Made by a program: the position numbers and the translations under genes. Shown here in pieces: positions 33,131 through 51,960 of a DNA stretch of 64,000 nucleotides (position 1 is the stretch's first letter; each line of letters begins with the position of its first letter). Below the pieces are notes generated by a model. The model was not told the origin of the DNA, did no database searches, and saw only the letters and a list, made by a program, of their open reading frames with translations. Origin of the DNA: an uncultured Gemmatimonadales bacterium (lineage in GTDB: Bacteria; Gemmatimonadota; Gemmatimonadetes; Gemmatimonadales; GWC2-71-9); assembly GCA_963730185.1 (NCBI GenBank), contig CAVSQW010000015.1, positions 32,001 to 96,000 of the forward strand. Direction: 5' to 3'.

Positions 33131-33190
33131 CGGGTGGGGATCCTGCCGGGTGGCGACGGTCGTGGGGACAGGCGTCGGCAACAACTGATT

Positions 33191-33215
33191 CACCGCAGAG
33201 GACGCGGAGAGCGCG
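33191..33215. repeat. ACCGCAGAG-type intergenic repeat
   Basis: CACCGCAGAGGACGCGGAGAGCGCG preceded by CAACTGATT. Confidence 0.6.
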
Positions 33216-33312
33216 AAGGGAGTAGGACAGGACTGAAGGCAGCAGCCGCTCCTCCCTTGCCCGCCATCTGATCTCCCCCTAACCTCCAGATGTCGCTGTC
33301 TTGGGGGGGCTC

Positions 33313-35558: not shown

Positions 35559-35586
35559 AACCGCAGAGGACGCTGAGGGCGCAGAG
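35559..35586. repeat. ACCGCAGAG-type intergenic repeat
   Basis: AACCGCAGAGGACGCTGAGGGCGCAGAG preceded by GGCAACTGATTC. Confidence 0.6.
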
Positions 35587-35633
35587 CGGTTCGGCGTCGA
35601 TCAGCGAAGGGTCCCCCGCCGCGCCGAGGGCCG

Positions 35634-36020
35634 TTACGTCTCGAAGAGAGGTATTCGGAGTGCTCGGGCGGCGGCGGCGAGGCGGGCGTCGTAGGTCGCC
35701 ATCCGGAGACGGCGCTCGCGGGCGCGGAGGAAGAGAATCGAGGCCAGGTGAAGCGCGTCGAGGGTCCGAACCGGCACCGGAAAGGGCTCGAGCCCCCGGG
35801 CCAGGACCGGCGGGGCCAGCTCGATCAGGGCAACGCGGCCGAGCAGGTCGCGGACGGCGTCGCCGTGAGACTTGGCCAGGCCGCGGGCGTTGACCCGGGT
35901 CCAGAGCTCGTACTCGAGCAGGCGGCTGGAGACGAGCGGCTCGTCCCAAAGGGTGGGGGGCGGCGTGCGGTCTTCGGCGAGCAGCTGGGCGAGGGCGACC
36001 GAGGTGTCGAGGTAGATCAC
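35634..36020 (-). CDS. PIN-domain (VapC) toxin
   Basis: IYLDTS, EYE, RTLDALHLAS, TYDARL. Confidence 0.9.
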   Translation of the reverse strand: MIYLDTSVALAQLLAEDRTPPPTLWDEPLVSSRLLEYELWTRVNARGLAKSHGDAVRDLLGRVALIELAPPVLARGLEPFPVPVRTLDALHLASILFLRARERRLRMATYDARLAAAARALRIPLFET

Positions 36021-36307
36021 CGGTCGCCGCGGTCTTGGTCCAGCTCGTCGAGGAGGGAAGCGAGGGGGGCCACGGGCTGGCGGGGTGGCGGCTCCCGCAC
36101 GGCCAGGAGCGGCGGCGTGAGCCATCCCTCGCGAACGGCGTCGGCCAGGAGCGCGTCCTGGAGCGACCCGCTCCGCCCGGGCCGAGGCGGGACCAGCTCG
36201 GCGACCACCCGGTCACGGCTGGTAACCAGGACGGTCTCGCCGTTCTGGGCCAGGCGGACGTACTCCGCCAGCCGGTTCTTGAGCACCTTGAGTCCCACGA
36301 CGACCAT
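36017..36307 (-). CDS. Phd/YefM-family antitoxin
   Basis: VGLKVLKNRLAEYVRLAQNGETVLVTSRDRVVAEL; overlaps the toxin start. Confidence 0.88.
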   Translation of the reverse strand: MVVVGLKVLKNRLAEYVRLAQNGETVLVTSRDRVVAELVPPRPGRSGSLQDALLADAVREGWLTPPLLAVREPPPRQPVAPLASLLDELDQDRGDR

Positions 36308-36337: not shown

Positions 36338-36419
36338 GGCAATTCGACGCGTGACCGTCTCTGCCCGGGGTCGGGTTGGCCTGGCAGGCTCGGTGGGTGG
36401 GCGGCGACAACAACTGCTT

Positions 36420-36737
36420 CACCGCAGAGGACGCCGAGGGCGCTGAGGGCTCCCGTGTCGTTGCCGGCATCCCGGCTGGGTGAGGACTCGGCTTGATGTG
36501 GGGGTGTGCGTGGTGGGGATGTCGCGGGGGCCTGGGATCGGTAACCACTGGTTAACCACAGAGGGCACAGAGGGCACAGAGGAACAGCCACAACGATAGG
36601 ATACAACGACAATCGCTCAATCCAGGTCCTCCGCGGACTCTGCGACCTGTGCGGTGAATTCTGCTGTGGTTGCCGTTGTTGTTGCTGTTCCCCCCTAGTT
36701 GCCGTTCTCTGTGTCCTCTGTGCCCTCTGTGGTTGAC
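36420..36737. repeat. Cluster of ACC(G/A)CAGAG repeats including nested inverted pairs
   Basis: CACCGCAGAGGACGCCGAGG at 36420; AACCACAGAGGGCACAGAGGGCACAGAG (~36553) pairs with CTCTGTGTCCTCTGTGCCCTCTGTGGTT (~36707-36734); a further reverse copy lies near 36630-36659. Confidence 0.7.
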
Positions 36738-36860
36738 CAGTTGTTGCGGAGCCCAACCAGCCGACGGCTGCGGACGAGGCACGTCGTGACCCGGATTGGG
36801 CTCTTGCGCGGTGGCGCGGCGGCCCCTACCTATGGGACGATCCCCAGTCTGGAGTCCCCG

Positions 36861-38117
36861 ATGCCCCAGTTGGCGCGGTTTCCTGGGTCGTGGCTCGTGG
36901 TGCTGGCGGCCGCCGCCTGCACCGGGAGCACCGAGATCGTCACGCCGCCGCCTCCGCCGGCGAGCGGGTTCACGCTGCGATTCGTGCCGGAGCCGGAGGA
37001 CGGGGCGACGGCGGCGGCGCTGGGATGGGGAAGCGGGTTACCGGGGTTGGCGGTGACGCTGACGCCGTCGGACTCGAGCCAGCCGGCGCGGACCTTCACG
37101 AGCGAAGGCGACGGGATGGTGGCGATCCCGGACCTGGTGGCGGGGGACTACATCGTGGAGGCGAGCCGGTGGCTAACGGCGGGGGAGCGGGCGGAGCTGG
37201 CGAGCGGGGACGATGGGGACGGGTTCGCGACCCGGACGGTGCTCCGAACGGGAACGGGGGTGGGCAGTACGACGATCGCGGTGCCGGCGAGCCGGCGGCG
37301 GTCGCTAGTGATCAGTGAGTGGGCGTTCAACCCGGGGCAGACCCCTGGTCGTGGCGGGTACGATTTTGGCGGCTTTCTGGAACTCTACAACAACTCGGAC
37401 ACCACGCTGTTCCTCGATGGCATGGTCGTGGCGCGGGGACTGGATCACGAGCTGGACTATCCTCTTTATCCGTGTGGCGGCGAGTATCACACGTTCAGTG
37501 CCGACGCAAGAGGTATTTGGACGCTCGGATACCAGGTCTTTCCCGGTGCCGGCCATGACTATCCGATCCTTCCTGGCCACGACATCGTGATTGCCACTGA
37601 TGCCATCGACCATCGACCCTTCTATCCCGGGGCAATGGATCTCAGTCATGCAGATTTTGAGTTCGTCGGCGCCGCGGACCCCGACAATCCTGCGGTTCCC
37701 AACATGGTGAACACGGGGTATGACCGCGACTTGCAGGGGCATGGCCTCTTTTGGCAGGACTTGGGGGCGATCGCCGTGGTGGCGATGCCGCTCGACACGG
37801 CCGCCCTGACGACGGCGGTATACCCCGGCACCAGCACATTCGCGTTCCCACGAATCCCGGGCGATAAGGTCCTCGATGTTGTTGCCATGAGGGCAGTCCG
37901 CGACTATGGCTACGCGTTGTGTCCTTCCATCCTGAATCCGCAATTCGATCGCGAACCGTTTGTGGGGCGCGGTGCAGACGTGGTGGCCGAATTTCTCTAT
38001 TCGGTATCACGGCGCGCCGCCGACCTGCCCAACGGCGGCCGGCCGATCCTACGAGACACGAGAAGCAGTGATGCCGACCTGGTACGAACCATACGAACGC
38101 CGGGGGTCGTCCCATAG
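36861..38117 (+). CDS. DUF4876-like lipoprotein, copy 1 (D1)
   Basis: Lipobox LAAAAC; FLELYNNSDTT.FLDG, FPG.G..YP..PG..IVIATDAIDH, DLSHADFEF, DPDNPAVPN match my recollection of DUF4876 / lamin-tail-like lipoproteins. Confidence 0.8.
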   Translation: MPQLARFPGSWLVVLAAAACTGSTEIVTPPPPPASGFTLRFVPEPEDGATAAALGWGSGLPGLAVTLTPSDSSQPARTFTSEGDGMVAIPDLVAGDYIVEASRWLTAGERAELASGDDGDGFATRTVLRTGTGVGSTTIAVPASRRRSLVISEWAFNPGQTPGRGGYDFGGFLELYNNSDTTLFLDGMVVARGLDHELDYPLYPCGGEYHTFSADARGIWTLGYQVFPGAGHDYPILPGHDIVIATDAIDHRPFYPGAMDLSHADFEFVGAADPDNPAVPNMVNTGYDRDLQGHGLFWQDLGAIAVVAMPLDTAALTTAVYPGTSTFAFPRIPGDKVLDVVAMRAVRDYGYALCPSILNPQFDREPFVGRGADVVAEFLYSVSRRAADLPNGGRPILRDTRSSDADLVRTIRTPGVVP

Positions 38118-38170
38118 GTTGCCTTGGGGACGGCGCTCCGCTGGGGCGTGCCGTCCCCGCCGTTCAGGAC

Positions 38171-38419
38171 CTAGTAGAGGCAGCGGCAGCAACCGTTGGT
38201 CGAGCCCCACTGAGCCTCGACCTCCTCCCCGTGGACCGCCACGCACGCGGCCAAGCACGCTCCCTCGTCCGGCTGCTGCCCGAGCCAATTCCAGCCGTCG
38301 TCGGGGCAGGTCAGCGCATTGGCCGGCGTGGCAACCGCCACCACCCCTCCGAACGCCAACGCCCCCGCCACCGCCACTCCAAACCCCCATCCGCCGAGCC
38401 TCTTGATGCTGCGTGACAT
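38171..38419 (-). CDS. Secreted six-cysteine peptide precursor, copy 1 (p1, 82 aa)
   Basis: Strong RBS AAGGAGGAG; signal peptide ending PANA; mature LTCPDDGWNWLGQQPDEGACLAACVAVHGEEVEAQWGSTNGCCRCLY; four paralogues in the window. Confidence 0.85.
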   Translation of the reverse strand: MSRSIKRLGGWGFGVAVAGALAFGGVVAVATPANALTCPDDGWNWLGQQPDEGACLAACVAVHGEEVEAQWGSTNGCCRCLY

Positions 38420-38472
38420 GATCTCCTCCTTGCTGCGGGAAGAACAGCGAGCACCGCCGCGACCCGAGGTGG

Positions 38473-38784
38473 TCACGGGCGGACGCCCGCGGAAGTAGTC
38501 GTGGGTGGGGTCGCCCCGGGGGCGACCGTGCCAGGGGGCGGTGGGTCCCACGCGCCGAAGTCCCCGCGCAGGGCGGCGTAGACCGAGTCGAGGACCGGCC
38601 CGGGCTCGAGCCGGCCGGTGTGGGCAAAGACCACCTCGCCCCAGTGGTTCAAGACCAGGGTCTGCGGCACGGCCCGGGCCCGGGCGAGCTGGGCGGTCTT
38701 CCAGTCGGGGAAGGTGGCCACTGCAAAGGCCAAGGCGTGTTCGGCCGCGGAGCACTGGAGGGTCCCGACCGAATCCAGGCCAAG
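38473..38784 (-). pseudogene. 3' remnant of TlpA-like thioredoxin (CPYC and anchor missing)
   Basis: LGLDS...ATFPDWKTAQLARARAVPQTLVLNHWGEVVF matches the C-half of 45511-46161; homology stops abruptly near 38784. Confidence 0.8.
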
Positions 38785-38938
38785 CTGCCGCCTGTCAAGC
38801 CGTGCCTCCTCCACGCCCGTTTCACGTGCTCGTCGGCGCGAGCCAGCCTGCGCACGGGCTCCGTGGCCCGGTTTGGGCTCTTGCGCGGTGGCGTGGCGGC
38901 CCCTACCTATGGGACGATCCCCAGTCTGGAGTCCCCCC

Positions 38939-40186
38939 ATGCCCCGCATGGCGCGGTTTCCTGGGTCGTGGCTCGTGCTGCTGGCGGCCGTCGCCTGCAC
39001 CGGGAGTACCGAGATCGTGACCCCGCCGCCCCCGCCGGCGAGCGGGTTCACGCTGCGATTCGTGCCGGAGCCGGAGGACGGGGCGACCGCCGCGGCGCTG
39101 GGGTGGGGGAGCGGGTTACCGGGGCTCACGGTGACGCTGACGCCGACGGACTCGAGCCGGCCGGCGCGGGCCTTCACGAGCGACGGGGACGGGACGGTGG
39201 CGATCCCGGACCTGGTGGCGGGGGACTACATCGTGGAGGCGAGCCGGTGGCTGACGGCGGCGGAGCGCGCGGAGCTGGCGAGTGGGGACGACGGGGACGG
39301 GTTCGCGACCCGGACGGTGCTCCGGACGGGGACGGGGGTGGGCAGTACGACGATCGGGGTGCCGGCCAGCCGGCGGCGGTCGCTCGTGATCAGTGAGTGG
39401 GCCTTCAACCATTTCGGGCTGCCGGGAATCGGCGCCTATACCTACGACGGCTTCCTCGAGCTCTACAACAACGCGGATACCACGATTTACCTGGATGGGA
39501 TGATCATCGCCGAGGGGTTTCGGAACGGTATCGCCGACACACCGGCCTTTCCCTGCGCCGAGAGTCGGCCGTTTCGGGACGATTCCGCCGGGGTGTGGAG
39601 CTGGGCGATGGAGCGCTTTCCCGGCACGGGGCACTCGTTTCCGATTCACCCAGGCGAAGTCAGGACGGTGGCAACGGATGCAATTGACCATCGGGCCCTG
39701 TTCCCCGACGCGCTGGACCTGAGTCACGCCGACTTCGAGTTCCGTGGCTCGGGCGACGTAGACAACCCGGCGGTGCCGGACCTGACGGACCTCAGCCTCG
39801 CACCGTACCCCGACGGTCATGGCCTGGAGTTCCAGGGACTTGCCATCATTGCGGTCGTGGCGCTGCCCCTCGATCCAGCCAACCTGGTGCGAGGCAACGC
39901 AGGCGGCGGGGAGTACGTGCGCATTCCCAAGGCGCGAATCATGGACATCCTGACGCTCCGCTCGAACTTCGCGACCGGTTTTACGGAGTGCTCCCCGCTC
40001 GTGGCGGCGGGGATCGACCGGGAGTGGTCGGATGTCCGAGGGACCGACTACCGAGATGAGCACCGGCACTCGGTTTCCCGGCGTGTTGCGGGGCAGGGCC
40101 TCAGCGGGCGGCCGCTGCTCTGGTACACCCGGAGCTCGTTCGCCGACTTCGAGCGGACCTTGCGGTCGCCCGGCGCAATACGGTGA
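38939..40186 (+). CDS. DUF4876-like lipoprotein, copy 2 (D2, most divergent)
   Basis: Same 157-codon N-terminus (to ISEWAFN), lipobox LAAVAC; divergent C-terminal domain retains FLELYNN, TDAIDH, ADFEF, DNPAVP. Confidence 0.8.
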   Translation: MPRMARFPGSWLVLLAAVACTGSTEIVTPPPPPASGFTLRFVPEPEDGATAAALGWGSGLPGLTVTLTPTDSSRPARAFTSDGDGTVAIPDLVAGDYIVEASRWLTAAERAELASGDDGDGFATRTVLRTGTGVGSTTIGVPASRRRSLVISEWAFNHFGLPGIGAYTYDGFLELYNNADTTIYLDGMIIAEGFRNGIADTPAFPCAESRPFRDDSAGVWSWAMERFPGTGHSFPIHPGEVRTVATDAIDHRALFPDALDLSHADFEFRGSGDVDNPAVPDLTDLSLAPYPDGHGLEFQGLAIIAVVALPLDPANLVRGNAGGGEYVRIPKARIMDILTLRSNFATGFTECSPLVAAGIDREWSDVRGTDYRDEHRHSVSRRVAGQGLSGRPLLWYTRSSFADFERTLRSPGAIR

Positions 40187-40270
40187 CCCTGAGTCTCTGG
40201 TAGCAACACCCTCAGGCCCCGGCTTCACGGGCGCGAGGGGCCCGGCGCGTGGCCGAGCCCCTCCGGCGCC

Positions 40271-40517
40271 TCAGAAGTAGCAGGTGCAGCAACCCTGCTG
40301 CGTGTACCGGACCTGCACGAGTGTGGGATGCAGCGCGTAGCACGCGTCCCAGCAGTCGTTGTAGGACGGCTGGTATCCCAGCCAGTTCCACCCCGTCGTC
40401 CGCGCAGGACATGGCATTGGCCGGCTTGGCGACCGCCAGCAACCCTCCGAACGCCAACGCCCCGGCCACCGCCAGCCCGAACCCCCATCCGCCGATCTTC
40501 TTCACGCTGCGTGACAT
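40271..40517 (-). CDS. Secreted six-cysteine peptide precursor, copy 2 (p2), with one extra base in a homopolymer
   Basis: Removing one C from CCCC at 40391-40394 gives 81 aa: MSRSVKKIGGWGFGLAVAGALAFGGLLAVAKPANA-MSCADDGWNWLGYQPSYNDCWDACYALHPTLVQVRYTQQGCCTCYF. Confidence 0.8.
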
Positions 40518-40567
40518 GATGTCATCCTGACTTGAAAGACGGCAGGCACCGCCGCGACCCGAAGTGG

Positions 40568-41219
40568 TCACGGCCGGATGCCCGCGGAAGGAGTCGGACG
40601 GGGTCGGGAACGTCCGGCCGCCGAGTCGGTGGGCGGCGGGTCCCACGCTCCGAAGTCGCCTCGGAGGGCGGCGTAGACCGAGTCGAGGCCTGGCCCGGGC
40701 TCGAGCCGGCCGGTGTGGGCAAAGACGACCTCGCCCCAGTGGTTCAGGACCAGGGTCTGGGGCACGGCGCGGGCCCGGGCGAGCTGGGCGGTCTTCCAGT
40801 CGGGGAAGGTGGCCACCGGGTAAGTCAGAGCGTGCTCGGCGGCGTAGTCCCGGACCCGTGGGAGCGAGTCCAGCCCAAGGCCAATCACCCCAACGAGGGG
40901 CCGGGCGGCGCGAGTCGACTCGGCCAGGGCCGCCCAGACCGGCAAGGTGGCCCGACAGTAGGGGCAGGTGGTGGTGAAGACGAAGACGAGCTGCCGGCCG
41001 GCGGTGTCGGCGAAGGCGCCGACGGTGACGGAATCGCCGGCGAGGGTCTTGGTCCGGAAGGTCGGCAGAGCGTAACCGCGATATGGAAGCGCCGGCTTTG
41101 GCCGTGAGCTCCAGGTAGGCCCGATTCAGCGCGACCTGCCGGCGGGCCAGCAGCACGACCAGGCCTGAGGCGACGAGCAGGGTGCCGCGCAGGAGGGCGG
41201 GAATCGATCGGGTTGCCAT
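40568..41219 (-). CDS. TlpA-like membrane-anchored thioredoxin, copy A (+1 indel near 41090)
   Basis: 652 nt versus 651 nt for the intact paralogue; LVFVFTTTCPYC and AVPQTLVL are retained across the frame break. Confidence 0.75.
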
Positions 41220-41817
41220 CGCGACGCTCGTGAGGTGGAGGGCCCCTCCACGATAACACGCGCCGGCTCCCGCCATAGAGCGCCAAGCGAGCCAGAAATG
41301 GTACCGGTTCAGGCCATGAGAGCCCCGGTGACGGAAAGGCGGGCATAGAGTCATTCGGCCCCATTGAGGCGTCGAGCGGATTCCGGTTATCCTGAGACGG
41401 ATACCTCGGACCTGGTGCCTATTTCGGATCAGTCGTTGTCGAAAGGTCCGCGGCACCTCGATGAGGCGCCGACCAGATCGTTGCCTTGCTAGAGACCTGA
41501 CCTCAGCAGGTTCGCGACCTGATCCGGGTCGGCTTCCACGATGCGCGACCGGCCGGTGGCGAGGCCGCCAGCTCGATGGTCAGAGCGCAGCGGCGGCAGA
41601 CGCTTCACCGCAGACCGAGCGTCGGGTCGGGGGAGCCTCGTCGAGGAAGGCGTGGGCAATGCCGCCGTCTGTCACTCCGTGCCTCCTTCGTACCTAGTTC
41701 GCACGTGCTCCTCCCCACGAGCCAGCCCTCGCACGGGCTCCGTGGCCCGGTTTGGGCTCTTGCGCCGTGGCGCGGCGACCCCTACCTATGGGACGATCCC
41801 CAGTATGGAGTCCCCCC

Positions 41818-43074
41818 ATGTCCCTAATCGCGCGGTGTCCTGGGTCCTGGCTCGTACTGCTGGCGGCCGTCGCCTGCACCGGGAGCACCGAGATCGTGAC
41901 GCCGCCGCCCCCGCCGGCGAGCGGGTTCACGCTGCGATTCGTGCCGGAGCCGGAGGACGGGGCGACCGCCGCGGCGCTGGGGTGGGGGAGCGGGCTACCG
42001 GGGCTGGCGGTGACCCTGACGCCGGCGGACTCGAGCCGGCCGGCGCGGGCCTTCACGAGCGAAGGGGACGGGACGGTGGCGATCCCGGACCTGGTGGCGG
42101 GGGACTACATCGTGGAGGCGAGCCGGTGGCTGACGGCGGCGGAGCGGGCGGAGCTGGCGGGCGGGGACGATGGGGACGGGTTCGCGACCCGGACGGTGCT
42201 CCGAACGGGGACGGGGGTGGGCAGTACGACGATCGCGGTGCCGGCCAGCCGGCGGCGGTCGCTGGTGATCAGCGAGTGGGCCTTCAATGTCGGGCAAACG
42301 CCCGGTCTCGGCGGCTACACCAACGGCGGCTTTCTCGAACTCTACAACAATGCCGACACGACGGTGTTCCTCGACGGCGTTGTTGTAGTGAAGGGCTTGG
42401 ACCAGGAGTTCGAATCGGCGGCCTTCCCGTGTTCTGCGTTCCGTCAGTACGCGAGTGATGCTGCAGGAATCTGGAGCCTTGCCTATCAAGTGTTTCCTGG
42501 TAAGGGCCGCGATTACCCTCTGGCGCCTGGGCACGTGGTCGTAGTTGCCACCGACGCCATCGATCATGGTGCGTTCTACCCAGCCGGCCTCGACCTCCGA
42601 TCGGCAGACTTCGAATTTGTCGGGACGAGTGATGCTGATAATCCGGCGGTGCCGAATATGGTAAACACTGGGTACGATCGTGACCTTGCGGGCCACGGCC
42701 TCGAGTGGGCGGAGCTTGGCGCGGTTGTTGCCGTTGCGAGACCGTTCGATACGACGGGCTTGGTCAGGGCGGTGTTCCCGGGTACGAGTACATTCGCCCA
42801 CCCCAGGGTTCCGACAAGTGCGGTGCTGGACGCTATCGCTATTCGGTCCAACTATGATCCGAGTCGCGGCGAGTGTCCCGACATCGTTAGTCCGCAGTTC
42901 GATCGGAACCCGTTTCGGGGGCGAGGCCGCGACCTGCCGATGGAGTTTCAGTACTCCGTATCGCGACGTACGATGCCCATCGAGATTGAGGGCCATGCAA
43001 TCCTACAGGACACCCGGGCCGGCAACGCAGACCTTGTCCGAAGTCCGAGGACCCCTGGCGTGATCCCGCAGTGA
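41818..43074 (+). CDS. DUF4876-like lipoprotein, copy 3 (D3)
   Basis: Same constant N-terminus and the same conserved motifs in a divergent C-terminal domain. Confidence 0.8.
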   Translation: MSLIARCPGSWLVLLAAVACTGSTEIVTPPPPPASGFTLRFVPEPEDGATAAALGWGSGLPGLAVTLTPADSSRPARAFTSEGDGTVAIPDLVAGDYIVEASRWLTAAERAELAGGDDGDGFATRTVLRTGTGVGSTTIAVPASRRRSLVISEWAFNVGQTPGLGGYTNGGFLELYNNADTTVFLDGVVVVKGLDQEFESAAFPCSAFRQYASDAAGIWSLAYQVFPGKGRDYPLAPGHVVVVATDAIDHGAFYPAGLDLRSADFEFVGTSDADNPAVPNMVNTGYDRDLAGHGLEWAELGAVVAVARPFDTTGLVRAVFPGTSTFAHPRVPTSAVLDAIAIRSNYDPSRGECPDIVSPQFDRNPFRGRGRDLPMEFQYSVSRRTMPIEIEGHAILQDTRAGNADLVRSPRTPGVIPQ

Positions 43075-43118
43075 CCGCGAGGTGACCTGCGGCCACCCCG
43101 CGGCGGTTCAGGCGGTCT

Positions 43119-43367
43119 CTAGTACAGGCAGCGGCAGCAGCCGTTGGTGGACCCCCACTGTGCCACGACGTCTGGGCCGTGAATGCTGGAGCAGACGTCG
43201 TAGCATACGCTCTGAGATGGCTGCTGCCCTACCCAGTTCCACCCGTCATCCTGGCAGTTCAGCGCATTGGCCGGCGTGGCAACCGCCACCACCCCTCCGA
43301 ACGCCAACGCCCCCGCCACCGCCACTCCAAACCCCCATCCGCCGAGCCTCTTGATGCTGCGTGACAT
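43119..43367 (-). CDS. Secreted six-cysteine peptide precursor, copy 3 (p3, 82 aa)
   Basis: RBS AAGGAGGAG; leader identical to p1; mature LNCQDDGWNWVGQQPSQSVCYDVCSSIHGPDVVAQWGSTNGCCRCLY. Confidence 0.85.
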   Translation of the reverse strand: MSRSIKRLGGWGFGVAVAGALAFGGVVAVATPANALNCQDDGWNWVGQQPSQSVCYDVCSSIHGPDVVAQWGSTNGCCRCLY

Positions 43368-43420
43368 GATCTCCTCCTTGCTGCGGGAAGAACAGCGAGC
43401 ACCGCCGCGACCCGAGGTGG

Positions 43421-43732
43421 TCACGGGCGGACGCCCGCGGAAGTAGTCGTGGGTGGGGTCGCCCCCGGGGCGACCGTGCCAGGGGGCGGTGGGTCCCACG
43501 CGCCGACGTCCCCGCGCAGGGCCGCGTAGACCGAGTCGAGGACCGGCCCGGGCTCGAGCCGGCCGGTGTGGGCAAAGACGACCTCGCCCCAGTGGTTCAA
43601 GACCAGGGTCTGCGGCACGGCCCGGGCCCGAGCGAGCTGGGCCGTCTTCCAGTCGGGGAAGCTGGCCACCGCAAAGGCCAAGGCGTGCTCGGCGGCGTAG
43701 CGCCGGACGGCCCCGACCGAATCCAGGCCAAG
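43421..43732 (-). pseudogene. 3' remnant of TlpA-like thioredoxin
   Basis: Same truncation point and junction sequence as 38473-38784, 4948 bp further on. Confidence 0.8.
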
Positions 43733-43886
43733 CCGCCGCCTGTCAAGCCGTGCCTCCTCCACACCCGTTTCACGTGCTCGTGGGCGCGAGCCAGCCTGCG
43801 CACGGGCTCCGTGGCCCGGATTGGGCTCTTGCGCGTTGCCGCGCCGGCCCCTACCTATGGGACGATCCCCAGTCTGGAGTCCCCCC

Positions 43887-45143
43887 ATGCCCCGCATGGC
43901 GCGATTTCCTGGGTCGTGGCTCGTGGTGCTGGCGGCCACCGCCTGCACCGGGAGCACCGAAATTGTCACCCCGCCGCCCCCGCCGGCGAGCGGGTTCACG
44001 TTGCGATTCGTGCCGGAGCCGGAGGACGGGGCGACGGCCGGGGCGCTCGGGTGGGGTAGCGGGTTACCGGGGCTGGCGGTGACGCTGACGCCGGCGGACT
44101 CGAGTCGGCCGGCGCGGGCCTTCACGAGCGAAGGGGACGGGACGGTGGCGATCCCGGACCTGGTGGCGGGGGACTACATCGTGGAGGCGAGCCGGTGGCT
44201 GACGGCGGCGGAGCGGGCGGAGCTGGCGGGCGGGGACGATGGGGACGGGTTCGCGACCCGGACGGTGCTCCGGACGGGGACGGGGGTGGGCAGTACGACG
44301 ATCGGGGTGCCGGCCAGCCGGCGGCGGTCGCTCGTGATCAGTGAGTGGGCGTTCAACGTGGGCTCCACGCCGGGTCTAGGTGGGTATTACACCGGCGGCT
44401 TCCTCGAGCTCTACAACAACAGTGACACGACCATCTATCTCGATGGCATGGTGGTGGCGCGAGGCCTCAACCTCGAGTTGGACTATCCGCTCTATCCCTG
44501 CAACGGGCCATACTACGCGTTCACGGCCGACCCGGCCGGTATCTGGACCCTAGGGTATCAAGTCTTTCCGGGGACCGGCCACGACTACGCCATCACGGCG
44601 GGCCAGGCTATCGTGATCGCGACGGACGCGATCGACCACCGGCCATTCTATCCAGGGGCGCTCGACCTGAGTCACGCGGATTTTGAGTTCGCTGGCAGCG
44701 CGGATCCGGACAACCCCTCCGTCCCCAACATGGTGAACACAGGATACGATCGCGACCTGTCGGGACATGGGCTGTTCTGGCAGGACCTTGGTGCGATCGC
44801 CGTGGTTGCGTTGCCCCTCGACACGACATCGCTGGTAAAGGCCATCTACCCTGGCCCTGGCACGTTCGCCCATCCGCGGATCCCTCGATCGAGGATTCTC
44901 GATGTCGTGGCGATGCGTGCGAGCCAGAGCTTTGACTATCCGCCATGCGCGACGATCATCAACCCAGAGTTCGATCACGAACCATTCCGGGGGCGGGGGG
45001 GAGATGTGGCGGCCGAGTTCCTGTATTCGGTGTCGAGACGGCCCACGGGCCTCCTCAGCGGTGGGCACCCAATTCTCCAGGATACCAGGACGGGAGAGGC
45101 GGATCTCCTTCGAACTGCCCGAACCCCGGGGCTGGTGCCATAG
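43887..45143 (+). CDS. DUF4876-like lipoprotein, copy 4 (D4)
   Basis: Same constant N-terminus; the C-terminal domain is closest to D1 (ELDYPLYPC, GIWTLGYQVFPG, GLFWQDLGAIAVVA, AEFLYSVSRR shared). Confidence 0.8.
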   Translation: MPRMARFPGSWLVVLAATACTGSTEIVTPPPPPASGFTLRFVPEPEDGATAGALGWGSGLPGLAVTLTPADSSRPARAFTSEGDGTVAIPDLVAGDYIVEASRWLTAAERAELAGGDDGDGFATRTVLRTGTGVGSTTIGVPASRRRSLVISEWAFNVGSTPGLGGYYTGGFLELYNNSDTTIYLDGMVVARGLNLELDYPLYPCNGPYYAFTADPAGIWTLGYQVFPGTGHDYAITAGQAIVIATDAIDHRPFYPGALDLSHADFEFAGSADPDNPSVPNMVNTGYDRDLSGHGLFWQDLGAIAVVALPLDTTSLVKAIYPGPGTFAHPRIPRSRILDVVAMRASQSFDYPPCATIINPEFDHEPFRGRGGDVAAEFLYSVSRRPTGLLSGGHPILQDTRTGEADLLRTARTPGLVP

Positions 45144-45211
45144 AGATCACAGAGGAGAAGCACCGGGCCGACCTGATGGGGTTCCGGCCGGCTCGGCGCT
45201 CTACTCGGAAA

Positions 45212-45460
45212 TCAGAAGAGGCAACGGCAGCAGCCGTTGGTCGACCCCCACTGCGACTCCACGTCCGGGTCATGGACAGCGACGCACGCTGCGTGACACG
45301 TTGCTGCGTCCGGCTGCTGCCCGAGCCAATTCCAGCCGTCGTCGGGGCAGGTCAGCGCATTGGCCGGCGTGGCAACCGCCACCACCCCTCCGAACGCCAG
45401 CGCCCCCGCCACCGCCAACCCGAACCCCCATCCGCCGATTTTCGTCATGCTGCGTGACAT
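45212..45460 (-). CDS. Secreted six-cysteine peptide precursor, copy 4 (p4, 82 aa)
   Basis: RBS CAGGAGGA; mature LTCPDDGWNWLGQQPDAATCHAACVAVHDPDVESQWGSTNGCCRCLF. Confidence 0.85.
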   Translation of the reverse strand: MSRSMTKIGGWGFGLAVAGALAFGGVVAVATPANALTCPDDGWNWLGQQPDAATCHAACVAVHDPDVESQWGSTNGCCRCLF

Positions 45461-45510: not shown

Positions 45511-46161
45511 TCACGGTCGGACGCCCGCGGAAGTAGTCGTACGCGCTTGGGGACGCCTGGCCGCCGAGTCGGCGGGCGGCGGATCCCACGCTCCGAAGTC
45601 GCCCCGCAGGGCGGCGTAGACCGAGTCGAGCACCGGCCCCGGTTCCAGCCGGCCGGTGCGGGCAAAGACGATCTCGCCCCAGTGGTTCAGGACCAGGGTC
45701 TGGGGCACGGCGCGGGCCCGGGCGAGCTGGGCGGTTTTCCAGTCAGGGAAGGTGGCCACCGGGTAGGTCAGGGCGTGCTCAGCCGCGTAGCGCTGGACCT
45801 TCCCGAGTGAATCCAGGCCGAGACCGAGGATCGGCGTCGAAGGCCAGCCGGCCCGGGTCGAGTCGGCCAGCGCGGCCCAGACCGGCAGGGTGGCGCGGCA
45901 GTAGGGACAGGTGGTGGTGAAGACGAAGACCAGTTGGCGGGCCGCGGTGTCGGCCAAGGCGCCGACGGTGGCCGAATCGCCGGCCAGCGTCGCAGCCCGG
46001 AAGGTCGGCAGAGCGTAGCCTCGATAGGGAAGGCCGGCTTTGGCCTTGAGCTCCAGGTACGCCCGATTCAGCGTCACCTGCCGGCGGGCCAGCACCACGA
46101 CCAGGCCGGAGGCGACGAGCAGGGCGCCGCCCAGGAGGGCGGAAATCGATCGGGTTGCCAT
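45511..46161 (-). CDS. TlpA/ResA-like membrane-anchored thioredoxin, copy B (intact, 216 aa)
   Basis: N-terminal TM helix, LPTF.A.TLAG, VFVFTTTCPYC, cis-Pro loop AVPQTLVL; ends 50 bp upstream of p4 on the same strand. Confidence 0.85.
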   Translation of the reverse strand: MATRSISALLGGALLVASGLVVVLARRQVTLNRAYLELKAKAGLPYRGYALPTFRAATLAGDSATVGALADTAARQLVFVFTTTCPYCRATLPVWAALADSTRAGWPSTPILGLGLDSLGKVQRYAAEHALTYPVATFPDWKTAQLARARAVPQTLVLNHWGEIVFARTGRLEPGPVLDSVYAALRGDFGAWDPPPADSAARRPQARTTTSAGVRP

Positions 46162-46389
46162 CGCGACGCTCGTGAGGGGGAGGGCCCCTCCACGATAACA
46201 CGCGCCGCCTCCTGCCATAGAGCGCCAAGCGAGCCAGAAATGGTACCGGTTCAGGCCACCAGAGCCCCGATGACGGGAAGTCGGGCATAGGGTCGTTCGG
46301 CCCCATTGAGGCGTCGAGCGGACGCCGGTTATGCTGAGACGGATACCTCGGACCTGGTGCCTATTTCGGATCAGTCGTTGTCGAAAATC

Positions 46390-46640
46390 CCGCGCCACCT
46401 CGACGAGGCGGCCGACCAAGTCGTTGCCTCCCTGGAGCCCCTGCCCCAGGAGGTGCGTGACTTGATCCGGGTTGCTGGTGGCGGCGTTTCTCCTCATCTT
46501 TGAGCGGGTCACGGTCGAGCATGCCGCCGATGGAGCGGGGTTCGGCCGGGCCGCGACCCTTCGCCATCACATGAAAGCCCACTTCCGCCGACTGCCGTCG
46601 GCCCTCCGCGTCGGAGGCACGGCCGCGTGGCGCGACCTGC
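46390..46640 (+). pseudogene. Remnant of an AraC-like regulator running into the TonB receptor ORF
   Basis: LLVAAFLLIFERVTVEHAADGAGFGRAATLRHHMKAHFRRLPSALR resembles the second AraC HTH (compare 32345-33130); no intact N-terminus. Confidence 0.5.
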
Positions 46641-49432
46641 TTCGACAGCTGCCTCGGCTGGGCCGCCGCGGTACGCTGGCGGCGCTCGCCTGCGTCATGC
46701 TGGGCCGCGAGGCGCGGGCCCAGGCGGCCGAGGGCGGAGCGGTGATCGCCGGCCGGGTCACCGACGCGGTGACCGACGCGCCGCTCGCCGGGGCCACGGT
46801 GGCGCTGGAGGGCGGCGCGCTGGCCGCGACCAGCGGGGCCGACGGGCGCTACCGGCTGGCGGGGGCGCCGCCTGGTCCGGCGGTGCTCCGGGTGGTCCGG
46901 ATCGGCTACGCGCCGGTTCGCCGGCCGCTGACGGTGCCGCTCTCGGGCACGGTCACGGTGGACGTGGGGCTGGCCCGGAGCGCCCTCAACCTGCCGAACC
47001 TGGTGGTGACCGCCGATCCGGCGGGACGGGCCCGGGGCGAGCTGGGAACGGCGTCGGTGATCGGGAGCGACGCGATCCGGAACCAGACCGCGGCCAGCCT
47101 GGCCGGGGTGCTGGAGCTGGTGCCCGGCACGACCCTCCAGCCGCCCGGGCTCGACGGGGTCCAGCAGTTCTCGCTCCGGTCGGTCCCGATCTCGACCGGC
47201 GGCGGTGCCACCGGCCCGAACGCCCTGGGCCCCTCGGCCCAGAGCCTGGCGTCGTTCGGGACCCAGATCGTGCTGGACGGGGTGCCGGTCTCCAACAACG
47301 CCAACCTCCAGTCGCTAGGTGCCCGTGGCGAGCTAAGCTTCGCCTCGGCGGCCGGCGGCGGGATCGACCTCCGCCGGATCCCGGCGGCCACCCTGGAACG
47401 GGTCGAGGTGATCCGGGGCGTGCCCTCGGCCCGGTTCGGCGATCTGACCCAGGGCGTGGTGCTGGTGGACACCCGGGCCGGCGTGGTGCCGCCCGAGGCC
47501 CGGCTCCGTTTCGACGCCCGGACGGTCGAGGGGACCCTGCTGGGCGGCGCCCGGCTCTTCCCGGGCCAGACCGGCACCGCGAGCGTGAACCTGGCCCGGA
47601 CCCGGCTGGCGCCCGGCACCCGGGACGACGTGGGCTCCCGGATCTCGGGGCAGCTGGCCCACCGGTTCGCCTCCGACCGGCTGACCCTCGACACCCGGAT
47701 CGACGCCTTCCAGGTGCTTCAAGACGAGCCGGCCACGCCGGTCTTCCCCGACGTCGCGGCCCGGAGCCGGGACAACGGGCTCCGGGTGTCGGAGCGGGCC
47801 CGCTACCGGCTGGGGCGGTCGAGCGGGCTCGAGTGGACGGCGGCCTTCGAGGGCGGCCGGCAGCGGTCGTTCACCCAGGCGCCCCGGCTCCGGGGCGCGA
47901 TGCCCTTCACCAACCGGCTCACCGAGGGGACCCAGGACGGCAAGTTCATCGGCGGGGTGTACGTGGCCCGGGTGGACGTGGACGGCGATCCCCGCCAGGT
48001 CTACTCGCGGCTGGAGCTGACCGCGCCGGCCAGGTTCGCCGGGATGGACCACCTGACCCGCACCGGGTTCGAGCTCCGCCGGGAATGGAACGGCGGGCCC
48101 GGGGTCCAGTTCGACGTGGAGTTTCCGCCGCAGGTGGAGTTCAACGGGGTGCAGGGCTACGACCGGCCCCGCCGGTTCGACGCGATCCCGGCGCTGGTGA
48201 CCAGCGCGCTCTATCTGGACGACCGGATGACCCGGGAGCTGGGCGGCACGGTGGTCAACCTCCAGGCCGGTCTCCGGTTGGAGCTGCTGCACGACGGGAG
48301 CACCTGGGCGTCGGGCGTGCGGGACGCGGTGCTGGGCCCCCGGCTGCAGCTGGAAGTGGCCCCGGCCGAGCGGGTCCGGTTTCGGGCGGGGGTGGGGCGG
48401 GTCGCGAAGGTGCCCTCGCTGGCGGAGCTCTTTCCCGGGGCGCAGTACTACGACCTGGTCAACTTCAACTACTACGCCAACGATCCGGCCGAGCGCCGGG
48501 CCATCCTGACCACCCGGATCCTGGACCGGACCAACCCCGACCTCCGGATGATGCGGGCCGACAAGGCCGAGGCGGGCGTCGAGGTGGACCTGGGCGGGGG
48601 CGGGCAGGTGGCGCTGGTGGGATACCTGGACCGGATCCGGAACGGGGTCGGGATCCGCGAGCTGCCGACCTTTCTGCTCCGCGACCGCTACGCCGTGGAC
48701 AGCGCCACCATCGGGACCGGCCGGCCCCCCGACGTGCTGTTGCCGCCCGCGGCCCAGGACACGGTTCCCACCCTGATCGACCAGCCGGCCAACAACCTGG
48801 ATCTCCGGAGCGAGGGGCTCGAGCTGACGGCCATCCTCCCGGAGATCCGCCCGCTCAAGACCCGGATCGACGTCCAGGGCGCCTGGGCCTGGAGCCGGCT
48901 CTACGACGCCGGGGTCCAGTTCAACAGCTCGTTCACCGACTTCCAGCTGACCGAGCACATTCCCCGGGCGCCCTACTGGCAGGCCCTGACCCGGAAGGGG
49001 GAGCGCCTGCTGATCACCACCCGGCTGATCCACCAGCAGCCCAAGGCGGGCCTGGTGATCACCGGGACGGTGCAGGTGACGGTCCGGGAGCTCCGCCAGG
49101 ACGTGGGGGGCACCGACACGCTGTCGTTCGCCGGGTACATCACCCGGGCCGGCGAGCTGGTGCCGGTGGCGCCGGCCGACCGGGCGCTGCCCCAGTACCA
49201 GGATCTCCGCATCGCGCGAACCGGGCTGATCGACCCGCAGAAGGCGTCGCCCGACTGGCTCTTCAGTCTCCAGGTGAGCAAGACCCTGCCGCTCGACGGG
49301 CGGCTGTCTTTCTACGCCTACAACGCGTTCGACCGGATCGGGAGCTACGGGGGGCGGACCACGGTGCCGCGGCTCTATGCGCCGGTGCGGTTCGGGCTCG
49401 AGGTGTCGATGCCGTTGCCGGGCGCCCGTTAG
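46571..49432 (+). CDS. TonB-dependent receptor with N-terminal carboxypeptidase-regulatory-like domain (start uncertain)
   Basis: Signal ending ARAQ; IAGRVTDAVTDAPLAGATV; plug motifs LELVPG, IVLDGVPVSNNAN, ERVEVIRGVPSARFGDLTQGVV; beta-barrel C-terminus FGLEVSM. Confidence 0.9.
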   Translation: MKAHFRRLPSALRVGGTAAWRDLLRQLPRLGRRGTLAALACVMLGREARAQAAEGGAVIAGRVTDAVTDAPLAGATVALEGGALAATSGADGRYRLAGAPPGPAVLRVVRIGYAPVRRPLTVPLSGTVTVDVGLARSALNLPNLVVTADPAGRARGELGTASVIGSDAIRNQTAASLAGVLELVPGTTLQPPGLDGVQQFSLRSVPISTGGGATGPNALGPSAQSLASFGTQIVLDGVPVSNNANLQSLGARGELSFASAAGGGIDLRRIPAATLERVEVIRGVPSARFGDLTQGVVLVDTRAGVVPPEARLRFDARTVEGTLLGGARLFPGQTGTASVNLARTRLAPGTRDDVGSRISGQLAHRFASDRLTLDTRIDAFQVLQDEPATPVFPDVAARSRDNGLRVSERARYRLGRSSGLEWTAAFEGGRQRSFTQAPRLRGAMPFTNRLTEGTQDGKFIGGVYVARVDVDGDPRQVYSRLELTAPARFAGMDHLTRTGFELRREWNGGPGVQFDVEFPPQVEFNGVQGYDRPRRFDAIPALVTSALYLDDRMTRELGGTVVNLQAGLRLELLHDGSTWASGVRDAVLGPRLQLEVAPAERVRFRAGVGRVAKVPSLAELFPGAQYYDLVNFNYYANDPAERRAILTTRILDRTNPDLRMMRADKAEAGVEVDLGGGGQVALVGYLDRIRNGVGIRELPTFLLRDRYAVDSATIGTGRPPDVLLPPAAQDTVPTLIDQPANNLDLRSEGLELTAILPEIRPLKTRIDVQGAWAWSRLYDAGVQFNSSFTDFQLTEHIPRAPYWQALTRKGERLLITTRLIHQQPKAGLVITGTVQVTVRELRQDVGGTDTLSFAGYITRAGELVPVAPADRALPQYQDLRIARTGLIDPQKASPDWLFSLQVSKTLPLDGRLSFYAYNAFDRIGSYGGRTTVPRLYAPVRFGLEVSMPLPGAR

Positions 49433-49974
49433 GCGGGGTCGAGCAGGTGGCCGAGCGAGACGCCGAACGGATGCGCCGCCCCGGCAGGGCGCCACTCGAG
49501 CCGGTCGGTGACCGTGACCGGGAACCGGGCCTCGGGTGTCCAGACCTCCGCCAGGCGGCGATCGGGATCGATGATCCAGTAGAGCGGCACGCCCTGCGCC
49601 TGATAGAGGCGGCGCTTGGTGAAGCGGTCGGCCCGGCGGGTGCTCGGGCTCACGACCTCGACGGCCAGGAGGAGCCGGCTCACATGAGCCCAGGCGGTGA
49701 TGCCGGCCTGCTCGGGCGGGACCACGAAGAGGTCCGGCTGGACCAGCAGGTCGGGCGCCCAGGAGAGGTCGGCCGGCGCGAAGAAGGCTCGCCCCACCGG
49801 CTCCCGCTGGAGGTAAGCATGAACCGCCGCGAAGAGCTCGCTCAGGACTCGCTGGTGCGCGGGACGGGGGGCGGGCGTCACCAAGAGCTCGCCGTGGACC
49901 GTCTCGTAGCGGTTGCCGTCGGCGGGCAAGGCGAGGACCATCTCGGCGGAATAGAACGGAGCGGACATGCCCAT
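49429..49974 (-). CDS. Uma2 family (PD-(D/E)XK) endonuclease-like protein
   Basis: RYE.VHGELLVTPAP...HQ, VQPDLFV, LAVEVVSPST...DR..KRRLY...GVPLYWIIDP. Confidence 0.9.
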   Translation of the reverse strand: MGMSAPFYSAEMVLALPADGNRYETVHGELLVTPAPRPAHQRVLSELFAAVHAYLQREPVGRAFFAPADLSWAPDLLVQPDLFVVPPEQAGITAWAHVSRLLLAVEVVSPSTRRADRFTKRRLYQAQGVPLYWIIDPDRRLAEVWTPEARFPVTVTDRLEWRPAGAAHPFGVSLGHLLDPA

Positions 49975-50013
49975 AAGCTCGGCTCGGCTGGGGGGAAAAG
50001 GCAAGGGCACGAC

Positions 50014-51678
50014 ATGACCGCAAGCTGGTCAGGGTGGGCCGCGAGAACACAACCAAAAAAGCGCATAGCGGCGCCGGTGATTGCCGGCCTGGCCGTCGCC
50101 TGGCTCGGGCTCGGCGGACCGCTCGCCGCCCAGTCGATCGGTCTGGCGCCCGAGCACGACCTGCCGGCCTGGCTCGACCGGTGGAGCGTGCTGGCGCCCC
50201 GGGCCGATCTGCCCCGGCACTTTCCCACCGCCGGTTCGGCGCTCCCGGCGGGGCTCTTTCCGGCGACCACCATCGGGCTCTTCTGGACGGCGGCCAACCC
50301 GGCCGGTCTGGCTGGGGCGGTGGACAGCGCCTGGACCGAGTTCCGGGCCGCGGCGGCGGGCAGCCGGGGTGCGTTCCGGCGGCCGCTCGATCCGGGGGGC
50401 ACGCGGCTTCGGCAGATATCGGCGACCTCGTGGCGACCGCTGACCGACCGAGTCACCATGCTGGGCCGGGTGGTGCTCGACCAGGAGCGGTTCGATCCCG
50501 GGAGCCAGGCCGACGAGAGCGAGCCCTACCCGACCAGCCCGTTCGTCACCACCGACAGCAGCACCAGCCCCACCCGCCGGACCCGAGCCCGGCTGGAGGG
50601 CGTGGCGGCCTGGCGGCTCGGGGCCTGGGCGTTAGGCGCCGACCTGGGCTACGAGACCAACGAGCGGCGGACCATCGAGGCCGGGTTCGCCCGACTGACC
50701 CGCCAGACGATGCCGGGCGTGGCGCTGGGGGTGACCCGGACCGCGGGCGGACTGACGGTCGGGCTGGTGGGCCGCTACCGGAACCGGGCCGAGACGATCG
50801 ACCTGACCGAGCGGGCCGCCGAGGGGCAGGTGGTGGACCTGGCCGGGTACCAGGGGGTGACGCCGATCAGTGTGAACCAGAGCTACTATCGGCGGATCGA
50901 CGAGGACGTCCCCTCGGCCAGCCTCGGCCTGAGCGGCGCGGGGCTGGGCGGCCGCTGGGTGGCGTTCGTCGAGGTGTCGCGCCTCCGCGAGCGGCGGACC
51001 CGGCAGCAGCAGGACCAGCCCGCCTACGACCGGTGGAACGCCGGCGCCTGGACCGCGGGCGCCGCCTACCAGCGCGGCCTGGGCCGCTCCGGCCGGTGGC
51101 GGCTGACCCTGGACGGCCGCTTCACCGCCCTCACCGGCGACGGCGACCTGGCGCTCGACTCGGCCGGCACGGTCTTCACCGCGACCGAGCGGGCCTTCGA
51201 GGGGCGGGCCGAGCTCCGCCGGCTCCGCTCGGCGGGCGGCTGGTCGGGGCTGATCGCGGTGAAGTCGCGCTACGAGAACCGGGTCCGGAACGACTCGATC
51301 GCGGTGATCGGATCGAAGATCCAGACCGCCGGCCTGGGCGTGGAGCTGGAGCTGGGCCACCCATTGGCCCCTGGCGTGGCATTCCTCGCCTCGGGCGGGC
51401 TGGTGAGTCAGGCGTCGAGCGCCGCGATCCCGGCGCCGCTGGTGCAAGGCGCCGTTTACCAGCGGCTGATCGCCCCGGAGCTCGACTTCTACGCCCGCGA
51501 CCTGACCCCCTGGTCGGCCGGCCTCGCGCTCCGCTGGCAGGCGAGTGCCCGAACCGCCCTCTGGCTGGCCGGGCACGCCGAGGGGGTGAGCCCCCGCGGT
51601 CCGATGGGGCCGACCGGCTACACCGGCTCGGCGGGGCGATCGGCGTCGAGTGTCGTGCTCGGGGTCGTGCTTCGCTGA
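50014..51678 (+). CDS. Outer-membrane beta-barrel protein (DUF6850-like)
   Basis: Signal peptide ending LAAQ; NPAGL, G.FRRP, PF...DS motifs and alternating beta-strand pattern. The family label is from memory of TonB/DUF4876 loci. Confidence 0.65.
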   Translation: MTASWSGWAARTQPKKRIAAPVIAGLAVAWLGLGGPLAAQSIGLAPEHDLPAWLDRWSVLAPRADLPRHFPTAGSALPAGLFPATTIGLFWTAANPAGLAGAVDSAWTEFRAAAAGSRGAFRRPLDPGGTRLRQISATSWRPLTDRVTMLGRVVLDQERFDPGSQADESEPYPTSPFVTTDSSTSPTRRTRARLEGVAAWRLGAWALGADLGYETNERRTIEAGFARLTRQTMPGVALGVTRTAGGLTVGLVGRYRNRAETIDLTERAAEGQVVDLAGYQGVTPISVNQSYYRRIDEDVPSASLGLSGAGLGGRWVAFVEVSRLRERRTRQQQDQPAYDRWNAGAWTAGAAYQRGLGRSGRWRLTLDGRFTALTGDGDLALDSAGTVFTATERAFEGRAELRRLRSAGGWSGLIAVKSRYENRVRNDSIAVIGSKIQTAGLGVELELGHPLAPGVAFLASGGLVSQASSAAIPAPLVQGAVYQRLIAPELDFYARDLTPWSAGLALRWQASARTALWLAGHAEGVSPRGPMGPTGYTGSAGRSASSVVLGVVLR

Positions 51679-51748
51679 CGTTCGTTCCGGTTGGGGGCGG
51701 TGTACTTGGCCAGGTTGGAGGTTGTGGCCGGGTGATGGCAACCGCTTT

Positions 51749-51960
51749 ACCGCAAAGGGCGCGGAGGACGCAGAGGAACAGCGTCGAGGGATCCTCCGCA
51801 CTCTATTGTCCTGACAGCCGGAGTCGTGGTGCTGGTGGTGGTGGTGGTGGTGGTGGTTGGTGGTGGTGGTTGTTGTTGTTGTTGTTGTTGTTGTTCCCCC
51901 TCTTGTGCTTTTTCCGTCCTCGATCAGTTCCTCTGCGATCTCTGCGTCCTCTGCGGTTAA
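51749..51960. repeat. Inverted ACCGCA(A/G)AG repeat pair enclosing a (GGT)n(TGT)n microsatellite
   Basis: ACCGCAAAGGGCGCGGAGGACGCAGAGGAA (51749) and TTCCTCTGCGATCTCTGCGTCCTCTGCGGTTAA (51928-51960); trinucleotide tract at 51826-51895. Confidence 0.75.

Follow-up and report, generated by a model that had tools for sequence, protein, structure and literature searches.

Proteins of the DUF4876 family have been proposed as lids of non-SusC TonB transporters, without a known phenotype (bioRxiv 10.1101/2023.03.17.533168), and in BT1939/BT1938 and BT3633/BT3632 a DUF4876 lipoprotein shares one locus with a TonB transporter. The same association, with a DUF6850 beta-barrel in addition, occurs in the window analyzed here, a stretch of 64,000 nucleotides (nt) from an uncultured Gemmatimonadales bacterium (assembly GCA_963730185.1, contig CAVSQW010000015.1, positions 32,001 to 96,000), where it stands beside four tandem units, each a lipoprotein gene (+) facing a peptide gene (-) and then a thioredoxin gene or thioredoxin remnant. 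Compared with the two described loci, lids occur in several copies, each next to a cysteine-rich peptide of its own and with a thioredoxin, the arms are homogenized, the domains exchanged and an extra Cys pair is present; the available part of the earlier descriptions mentions no peptide. The array carries old cassette types, each a variable lid domain with one mature peptide, on homogenized arms, lid and peptide genes are paired one to one, and cassettes have been exchanged between flanks. Lid-transporter pairs and bacterial cis-defensins are known already, and the joined peptide-lid system is the new part; no peptide-lid link was found in the literature searched (subscription papers and supplements lay outside its scope), and the system would be categorically new in kind if cognate recognition holds.

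The peptides share with cis-defensins, the CS-alpha-beta peptides (alpha-beta, stabilized by cysteines) with five bacterial classes (PMC11561630), a helix CxxxC, a strand CxC, a leader and a predicted beta-alpha-beta-beta order, and their eight-Cys relatives resemble bacterial class III, with its extra bond from Cys1; the main text of that source, to which the count is confined, contains no occurrence of Gemmatimona-, TonB, thioredoxin, operon or gene cluster. Unlike cis-defensins, the window peptides are anionic and have neither the GxC core nor the Cys that pairs with it. SP11, the ligand of the Brassicaceae S-locus, is defensin-like, and weak fold matches of the window's peptide include chain 5gyy_H ('Plant receptor complex', Z 3.1). 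The S-locus pair SCR/SP11-SRK likewise joins a polymorphic Cys-rich ligand and its receptor in one haplotype (PMC10624595). This is an analogy only, since the partner here is a bacterial lipoprotein without a kinase. Loci of the contact-dependent inhibition (CDI) and Rhs types are polymorphic toxin-immunity loci, and our locus resembles such loci in having a variable module between constant arms, accumulating arrays, orphan partner genes and a TonB transporter nearby; it differs in lacking a carrier protein or known toxic domain, so that the presumed toxin would be a free 5-kDa disulfide peptide. A bacteriocin that hijacks a receptor is known in pectocin M, which acts through FusA (PMC11658791). 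Type XI secretion and hemophore loci also combine an outer-membrane barrel with surface lipoproteins and small secreted proteins (PMC8406197), whereas the barrel here is DUF6850, not DUF560, and the secreted protein is defensin-like and polymorphic. By these comparisons, the locus may work like S-locus haplotypes or polymorphic toxin loci while being a member of neither.

Exchange of domain and peptide between constant arms

Recomputed identities and coordinates bore out the layout described by an earlier sequence-only reading, in which both variable 3' ends of each unit lie between constant arms. The features of the array and its right flank are listed below in window coordinates.

36861..38117 (+): L1, DUF4876 lid lipoprotein; arm 36861-37331, domain D1 37332-38117; PF16215 46.6 bits against a cut-off of 27.9
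38171..38419 (-): p1, 82-residue precursor with a 35-residue signal-like leader and a 47-residue six-Cys mature peptide
38473..38784 (-): thioredoxin remnant of unit 1, residues 114-216 only, without CxxC
38939..40186 (+): L2, DUF4876 lid; domain D2 from 39410
40271..40517 (-): p2, with an extra base near 40394 that shifts its frame as assembled
40568..41219 (-): trx2, thioredoxin-like gene of full length whose frame is broken by an extra base near 41091
41364..41520, end approximate (+): broken 5' copy of the AraC-type gene of 46306
41818..43074 (+): L3, DUF4876 lid; domain D3 from 42289
43119..43367 (-): p3 precursor
43421..43732 (-): thioredoxin remnant of unit 3, residues 114-216
43887..45143 (+): L4, DUF4876 lid; domain D4 from 44358
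45212..45460 (-): p4 precursor, the same as p1 over codons 21-51
45511..46161 (-): trx4, thioredoxin-like protein, intact, carrying CPYC and an N-terminal hydrophobic anchor
46306..46717 (+): AraC-type helix-turn-helix (HTH) region with a frameshift near 46500 and with the 3' part in frame with the transporter signal peptide
46466..49432 (+): open frame of the TonB-dependent transporter, mature protein from about 46718
50014..51678 (+): DUF6850 beta-barrel, 50.9 bits against a cut-off of 27

In all six pairs of L1 to L4, the arm (residues 1-157) was identical at 145-150 of 157 residues, and the domains were far more diverse (D1/D4 193/261, D1/D3 160/260, D3/D4 153/260, any pair with D2 112-118 of 256-257), which upholds the grouping ((D1,D4),D3),D2. 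Synonymous differences amounted to 13-19 of about 142 codons in the arm (about 10-13%) and to 57-67% in the domains, and because this divergence jumps at the SEWAFN boundary between arm and domain, the domains are taken to be old and the arms recently homogenized. The divergence of the domains at synonymous codons, together with similar arrays in other genomes, led us to reject an assembly artefact as the source of the array. The lipoproteins, the peptides and their DNA have no further copy in the 5.27-Mb assembly, which was searched as a whole.

The mature peptides had been grouped as ((p1,p4),p3),p2, and the underlying numbers (p1/p4 38/47, p1/p3 31/47, to which we add p3/p4 30/47 and p2 19-21/46) and the outlying position of p2 are solid. 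Codons 21-51 form a 93-nt tract in which p1 and p4 are identical (0/14 synonymous differences) and which extends 16 codons into the mature peptide; since 16 of the 38 shared p1/p4 residues lie in this one recent tract, the grouping of 1 and 4 against 3 is weak (outside it, p1/p4 22/31, p1/p3 19/31, p3/p4 18/31 and p2 9-11/30). The p4 leader is indeed a mosaic, as proposed, but the mosaic is not confined to the leader.

The flanks group otherwise. DNA identities of leader, upstream region and thioredoxin were 1.00/1.00/0.95 for units 1 and 3, which thus share all three as claimed, and 0.90/0.90/0.87 for units 2 and 4, with the other unit pairs at 0.88-0.91, 0.76-0.78 and 0.83-0.86, respectively. 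The proposed flank grouping (1,3),(2,4) therefore stands for the upstream region and the thioredoxin, but the leader singles out only 1 and 3 and not 2 and 4 (0.90 against 0.88-0.91). Units 2 and 4 do share a full-length thioredoxin, with the qualification that trx2 is frameshifted as assembled. Between genomes, arm and domain are equally divergent (medians 0.40/0.40, 562 pairs), and within arrays the arm is far more alike in five of seven (G000, G206, G280, G390 and G009, not L043 or L095). An arm intrinsically more conserved than the domain was rejected as an explanation (median 0.43/0.43 over 10,153 pairs).

Separate trees of arm and cassette, built from 15 six-Cys units, disagreed: the four window arms formed one clade (support 0.98), D2 fell outside the (D3,(D1,D4)) clade, and p2 grouped with the peptide of another genome (0.89), with the p1+p4 node at only 0.36. 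Relatives show the corresponding swaps. On metagenome contig L042, a stretch of 874 nt matches the unit-1 flank at 93.7% identity, yet what lies between these unit-1/3 flanks is a domain of the D2 type (110/183, as opposed to 85-87) with a peptide of the p2 type (29/46, as opposed to 18-20). In P0163, conversely, the domain is essentially identical to D2 and is attached to an arm with only 88% likeness to that of L2, although no intact p2 was found beside it, and P0160, P0164 and P0166 bear other domains (44-64%) on window-like arms. In one G290/G333 pair, the proportion of synonymous differences (pS) was 0.235 in the arm and 0.304 in the leader, against 0.089 in the domain and 0.061 in the mature peptide, so the cassette is younger than both its flanks. 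We are therefore highly confident that swapping occurs at the arm/domain boundary, and the trees and the swaps in relatives agree with the earlier proposal that domain and mature peptide travel as one when the constant arms recombine.

The extra bases in p2 and trx2 are probably assembly errors, because contigs of relatives, which may be copies of other units, lack them and because another gene of the window, a pyrimidine-nucleoside phosphorylase-like gene (named from its sequence, 30382-31764), is also broken, by two frameshifts. The mature part of p2 was read with X at the frameshift, and the absence of an exact match to the frameshifted product in the protein collection decides nothing. A promoter and terminator scan of the locus gave a result at chance level.

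Lid, peptide and thioredoxin families

All four lids exceeded the Pfam PF16215 (DUF4876) cut-off (39.8-46.6 bits against 27.9), their profile matched BT1938 (PDB 4Q1Z) at E 4e-16, and 4q1z was the best Foldseek match of a lid model (E 2e-12, template modeling score 0.42), the model itself having a predicted local distance difference test (pLDDT) score of only 62. In the alignment, 123 of 124 rows have the lipoprotein Cys at position 20 (signal assignment by alignment), and a Cys pair absent from 4Q1Z in the alignment is invariant in 143 of 143. Judged by these profile matches, L1-L4 are DUF4876 lids of a trio with the TonB transporter and the DUF6850 barrel, both of which lie to the right of the array (transporter 46466-49432) on the same strand as the lids; by analogy, the lids would be exposed at the surface and docked on the transporter. 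In genomes G021 and G006, a distant lid clade (L039 and L040) adjoins a transporter without Cys pair, peptide or thioredoxin, L040 also having DUF6850 and CobW, and this type of locus is probably an ancestral form serving metal uptake.

The peptides were compared over 136 rows, of which 25 came from the window, the loci and one further search and 111 from the 150 listed profile matches (left out were 6 long repeat proteins, 7 partial or over-long sequences and the 26 lowest-ranked). The six Cys are the only invariant positions. CxxxC in the helix and CCxC in the strand were present in 135/135 six- and eight-Cys peptides, whereas the GxC gamma-core and the third canonical disulfide were found in none of the 31 six-Cys peptides (the window's included) and GxC in 88 of 104 eight-Cys relatives; lacking the GxC core, the window peptides are defensin-like rather than canonical defensins. 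The model of mature p1 is beta-alpha-beta-beta (pLDDT 96, helix 17-28, strand 42-46). Against PDB, the family profile retrieved 33 sequences at E up to 10, 32 of them named defensins or scorpion toxins, with a best E of 0.024; Pfam AtDEF-like matched 31 of the 136 peptides, p1 not among them. Structural comparison of p1 (VIA) gave Z 3.4 to plant defensin 1ti5 (root-mean-square deviation 2.3, 38 aligned), which is low and tied with PAN/apple domains, and Foldseek with the peptide model returned nothing at E 0.001, nor did a structure atlas give a usable match for p1. Taken together, the peptides are predicted to be anionic six-Cys miniproteins with a defensin-like fold. Five peptides in G290 and G333 have YCxC in place of CCxC and an extra N-terminal CxxC.

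Class II microcins and bacteriocins exported by ATP-binding cassette (ABC) systems possess a dedicated ABC exporter and a double-glycine leader. The leader here is hydrophobic and ends in PANA, and no conserved exporter was present among 74 flanking open reading frames (ORFs) surveyed out of 135 candidates, which included two ABC ATPases, one of them beside SufBD. The intact thioredoxin trx4, with its anchor and CPYC, gave weak matches to AhpC-TSA, StoA, TrbB and DsbE, all below cut-off.

One-to-one pairing and the case for cognate recognition

The peptide-lid module recurs in Gemmatimonadota. The peptide profile had 213 matches at E 0.001 among 50%-identity representatives, and of six records found with the profile, five were titled Gemmatimonadota or Gemmatimonadales, the sixth being an 18-residue match; pattern scans yielded only two true loci in metagenomes and five in genomes. 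In 401 genomes of the family, with scoring limited to 14 and 4 candidates in each, 22 had the peptide, 29 a lid match (25 close) and 21 both; a close lid was present in 21 of the 22 peptide genomes and a peptide in 1 of 372 genomes without a lid match. Of a phylum sample, 12/301 matched; these came from 4 of 12 families (one doubtful).

In fetched loci, which were chosen by peptide or lid matches (peptide matches ending before profile position 70 were dropped, one of them a frameshifted peptide with thioredoxin and without lid), a lid lay within 400 nt of 58 of the 63 peptide genes having 1 kb of room, and a peptide beside 55 of 66 full lids. Among 57 peptide genes with room on both sides, 52 adjoined a lid and 39 any thioredoxin piece; the thioredoxin is often dropped from repeat units, and transporter and barrel are usually not repeated. 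Lids without a peptide (11/66) outnumbered peptides without a lid within 2.5 kb (3/63). Genome G290 (single contig, 69% complete) has 11 lid matches and 11 peptides forming 10 adjacent pairs in two clusters (L102-L104, on G290:C1), and no transporter or barrel of this type was found in it. In G331 (95% complete), peptide and thioredoxin are kept, whereas neither a lid nor a transporter or barrel was found. Peptide genes that are decayed or frameshifted were seen at L031:1764-2003 (G009), L090:3616-3863 (G334) and L128:7146-7340 (G116), the first two beside intact lids. This retention of genes, one to one in both orientations with the rest of the module shared or lost, is the best argument for a direct peptide-lid relation, and on balance we lean towards cognate binding of some kind between each lid domain and its own peptide.

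Toxin-immunity arrays accumulate producers one to one with their immunity partners, whereas a scavenger would be expected to gather many receptors per producer. A role of the peptide-lid pairs as toxin-immunity or kin-discrimination cassettes, which we put forward tentatively and with more doubt than conviction, fits best because accumulation is one to one, orphan lids outnumber orphan peptides, old types span genomes, occurrence is patchy and G331 is a producer without lid and transporter. The peptide would be exported by Sec, its disulfides would be folded by the CPYC thioredoxin shared between units, and the far domain of the DUF4876 lid would bind its own peptide type, pairs being exchanged by recombination in the near-identical flanks. 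The peptide may then cross the outer membrane via the neighboring TonB transporter or DUF6850 barrel. In what is the most weakly inferred step, a cell with the matching lid would neutralize or recognize the peptide, and a relative with the transporter but another lid would be harmed or rejected.

The same one-to-one expansion of producers with lids, and G331 as a producer without a detected receptor, speak against private uptake, in which the peptide would be a self-made metal carrier or signal captured by the matching lid and handed to the TonB transporter, and extra lids would be pirate receptors. That explanation is unlikely in our estimate, although several observations suit it: in Bacteroidota, shortage of iron induces the DUF4876 loci (PMC10434189), the distant peptide-free lid locus adjoins CobW, the peptides are acidic with His in 30 of 31 six-Cys members, orphan lids exist, and small proteins, ferredoxin and hemophores among them, are ligands of TonB transporters (PMC11658791). 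It also leaves no conserved place for a metal if disulfides take up the Cys, since nothing else is invariant in the peptides, and the 74 flanking ORFs include no conserved inner-membrane uptake, reductase or sensor gene, only the AraC-type HTH. Strict pairing would equally be expected if the peptide were a subunit or export client of its own lid, forming a surface complex (a variable tip or adhesin) or leaving by way of transporter or barrel with the lid as escort; protein secretion through a TonB transporter has a precedent in Oar/PopC, and DUF560 barrels bring lipoproteins to the surface and also secrete soluble proteins (PMC8406197). Lids are nevertheless kept alone, as the 11 of 66 without peptide and the decayed peptides beside intact lids (G009) show, which makes this improbable.

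Several results count against toxin-immunity or kin-discrimination cassettes and against cognate pairing in general. The lids have been proposed to aid import, not to block it (bioRxiv 2023.03.17.533168). None of the 136 mature peptides carries a net positive charge, unlike membrane-lytic defensins, and a cationic membrane-lytic peptide was rejected for this reason. Orphan peptides occur, as counted above. The cassette is not indivisible, because the p1/p4 conversion tract enters the mature peptide, and tail-to-tail geometry is not required, since among 55 complete units (12 peptide matches skipped) 41 converge and 14 are co-oriented. Peptide and domain types also disagree in G290_L104_8001, where an LPPH-type peptide is joined to a lid of the other clade, and in G019, where the peptide is 69% like p4 and the domain only 40% like D4. 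The proportion of nonsynonymous differences (pN) was below pS in every differing region of 14 pairs, so positive selection was not detected there.

Statistical tracking of peptide by domain belongs with these points. The tests compare phylogenetically non-independent units, and the whole-domain distances they use could mask an interface of small size. The partial Mantel correlation of mature peptide with domain, given arm and leader, was -0.06 in 29 units, separate runs gave 0.28 for the six-Cys and 0.00 for the eight-Cys subset, the partial r over 55 units was 0.11 for the domain against 0.47 for the arm, and the array of 10 units in G290 gave -0.29 for the domain against 0.71 for the arm. 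Quartets with domain-arm disagreement split 96/106/39 over all units, 9/3/1 in G290 and G333 together, and 41/0/0 in the six-Cys set, falling to 1/0/0 without the window. In the 14 co-oriented units, in which the arm lies between peptide and domain, the values were 0.22 for the domain and 0.25 for the arm, with quartets at 10/7/1. Sliding windows along the lid revealed no single region tracking the peptide in all three subsets. Among 27 close pairs, which are not independent, mature-peptide identity did track the domain, at rho 0.86 against 0.01 for the arm, and did so without the window's six (0.84 against 0.35); this is not decisive because linkage predicts the same pattern.

Linkage with gene conversion is the alternative these tests address: lids would bind diverse outside cargo, and the peptides would be separate secreted products that travel with them since only the similar flanks recombine. 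Near-saturated synonymous sites in the domains alone would block internal crossovers, no domain-specific signal beyond kinship appears family-wide or in G290, the discordant G290 pair agrees with it, and the available account of the Bacteroidota trio mentions no such peptide. It leaves unexplained why lid and peptide stay one to one, in both orientations, while thioredoxin, transporter and barrel are dropped, and why the close lid clade and the peptide occupy near-identical sets of genomes; for these reasons we hold linkage alone to be rather unlikely as the whole explanation. Of the sequence-only claim that exchange keeps cognate pairs linked, joint exchange is supported and the cognate part is no more than the leaning given above; linkage explains most of the co-variation.

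Returning to recognition between lid and peptide, a bacterial self/non-self locus resembling the plant S-locus, in which each lid recognizes only its own defensin-fold peptide and the pair is swapped as one haplotype in arrays of up to ten, is a real possibility that we place somewhat short of an even chance. The locus ties the cargo question of DUF4876 transporters to the role of bacterial defensin-like peptides, and a simple binding matrix tests both, because the locus supplies matched and mismatched pairs (p1/D1, p2/D2, p3/D3, with dozens more in relatives). Cognate pairs would be the bacterial counterpart of the haplotypes that join Cys-rich ligand and receptor in plants, and would offer a natural library of miniproteins with orthogonal receptors, and, if the proposal is true, the peptides would be the first ligand for DUF4876 lids and the module the first dedicated folding, transport and recognition machinery for bacterial defensin-like peptides.

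Neighboring genes and repeats

The AraC-type HTH was the only recurrent module-linked extra gene among the 74 flanking ORFs, which contained no conserved protease. In three genomes of the genus, it stands in one open frame with the TonB transporter, directly before the signal peptide (46466-49432 in the window, L034:3988-7413 and L036:5205-8585), with Pfam HTH_18 matches at 0.001 here and at 1e-11 and 5e-14 in the relatives, and a regulator-transporter fusion is possible from these frames; in G280 (L082), the AraC-type HTH is a separate gene. Transporter and DUF6850 barrel, which are neighbors in relatives, are separated here by a Uma2-family endonuclease gene (49429-50010, -). A PIN toxin and Phd antitoxin pair (35634-36307, -) lies close to the array on its left side; toxin-antitoxin genes are common neighbors, with PIN, HEPN, MazF and HipA genes flanking several relatives' loci. 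Short intergenic repeats resembling repetitive extragenic palindromic (REP) elements, built around ACCGCAGAGGACGC in direct and inverted pairs, occur at 33171-33220, 35560-35599, 36400-36449, 36533-36755 and 51728-51981.

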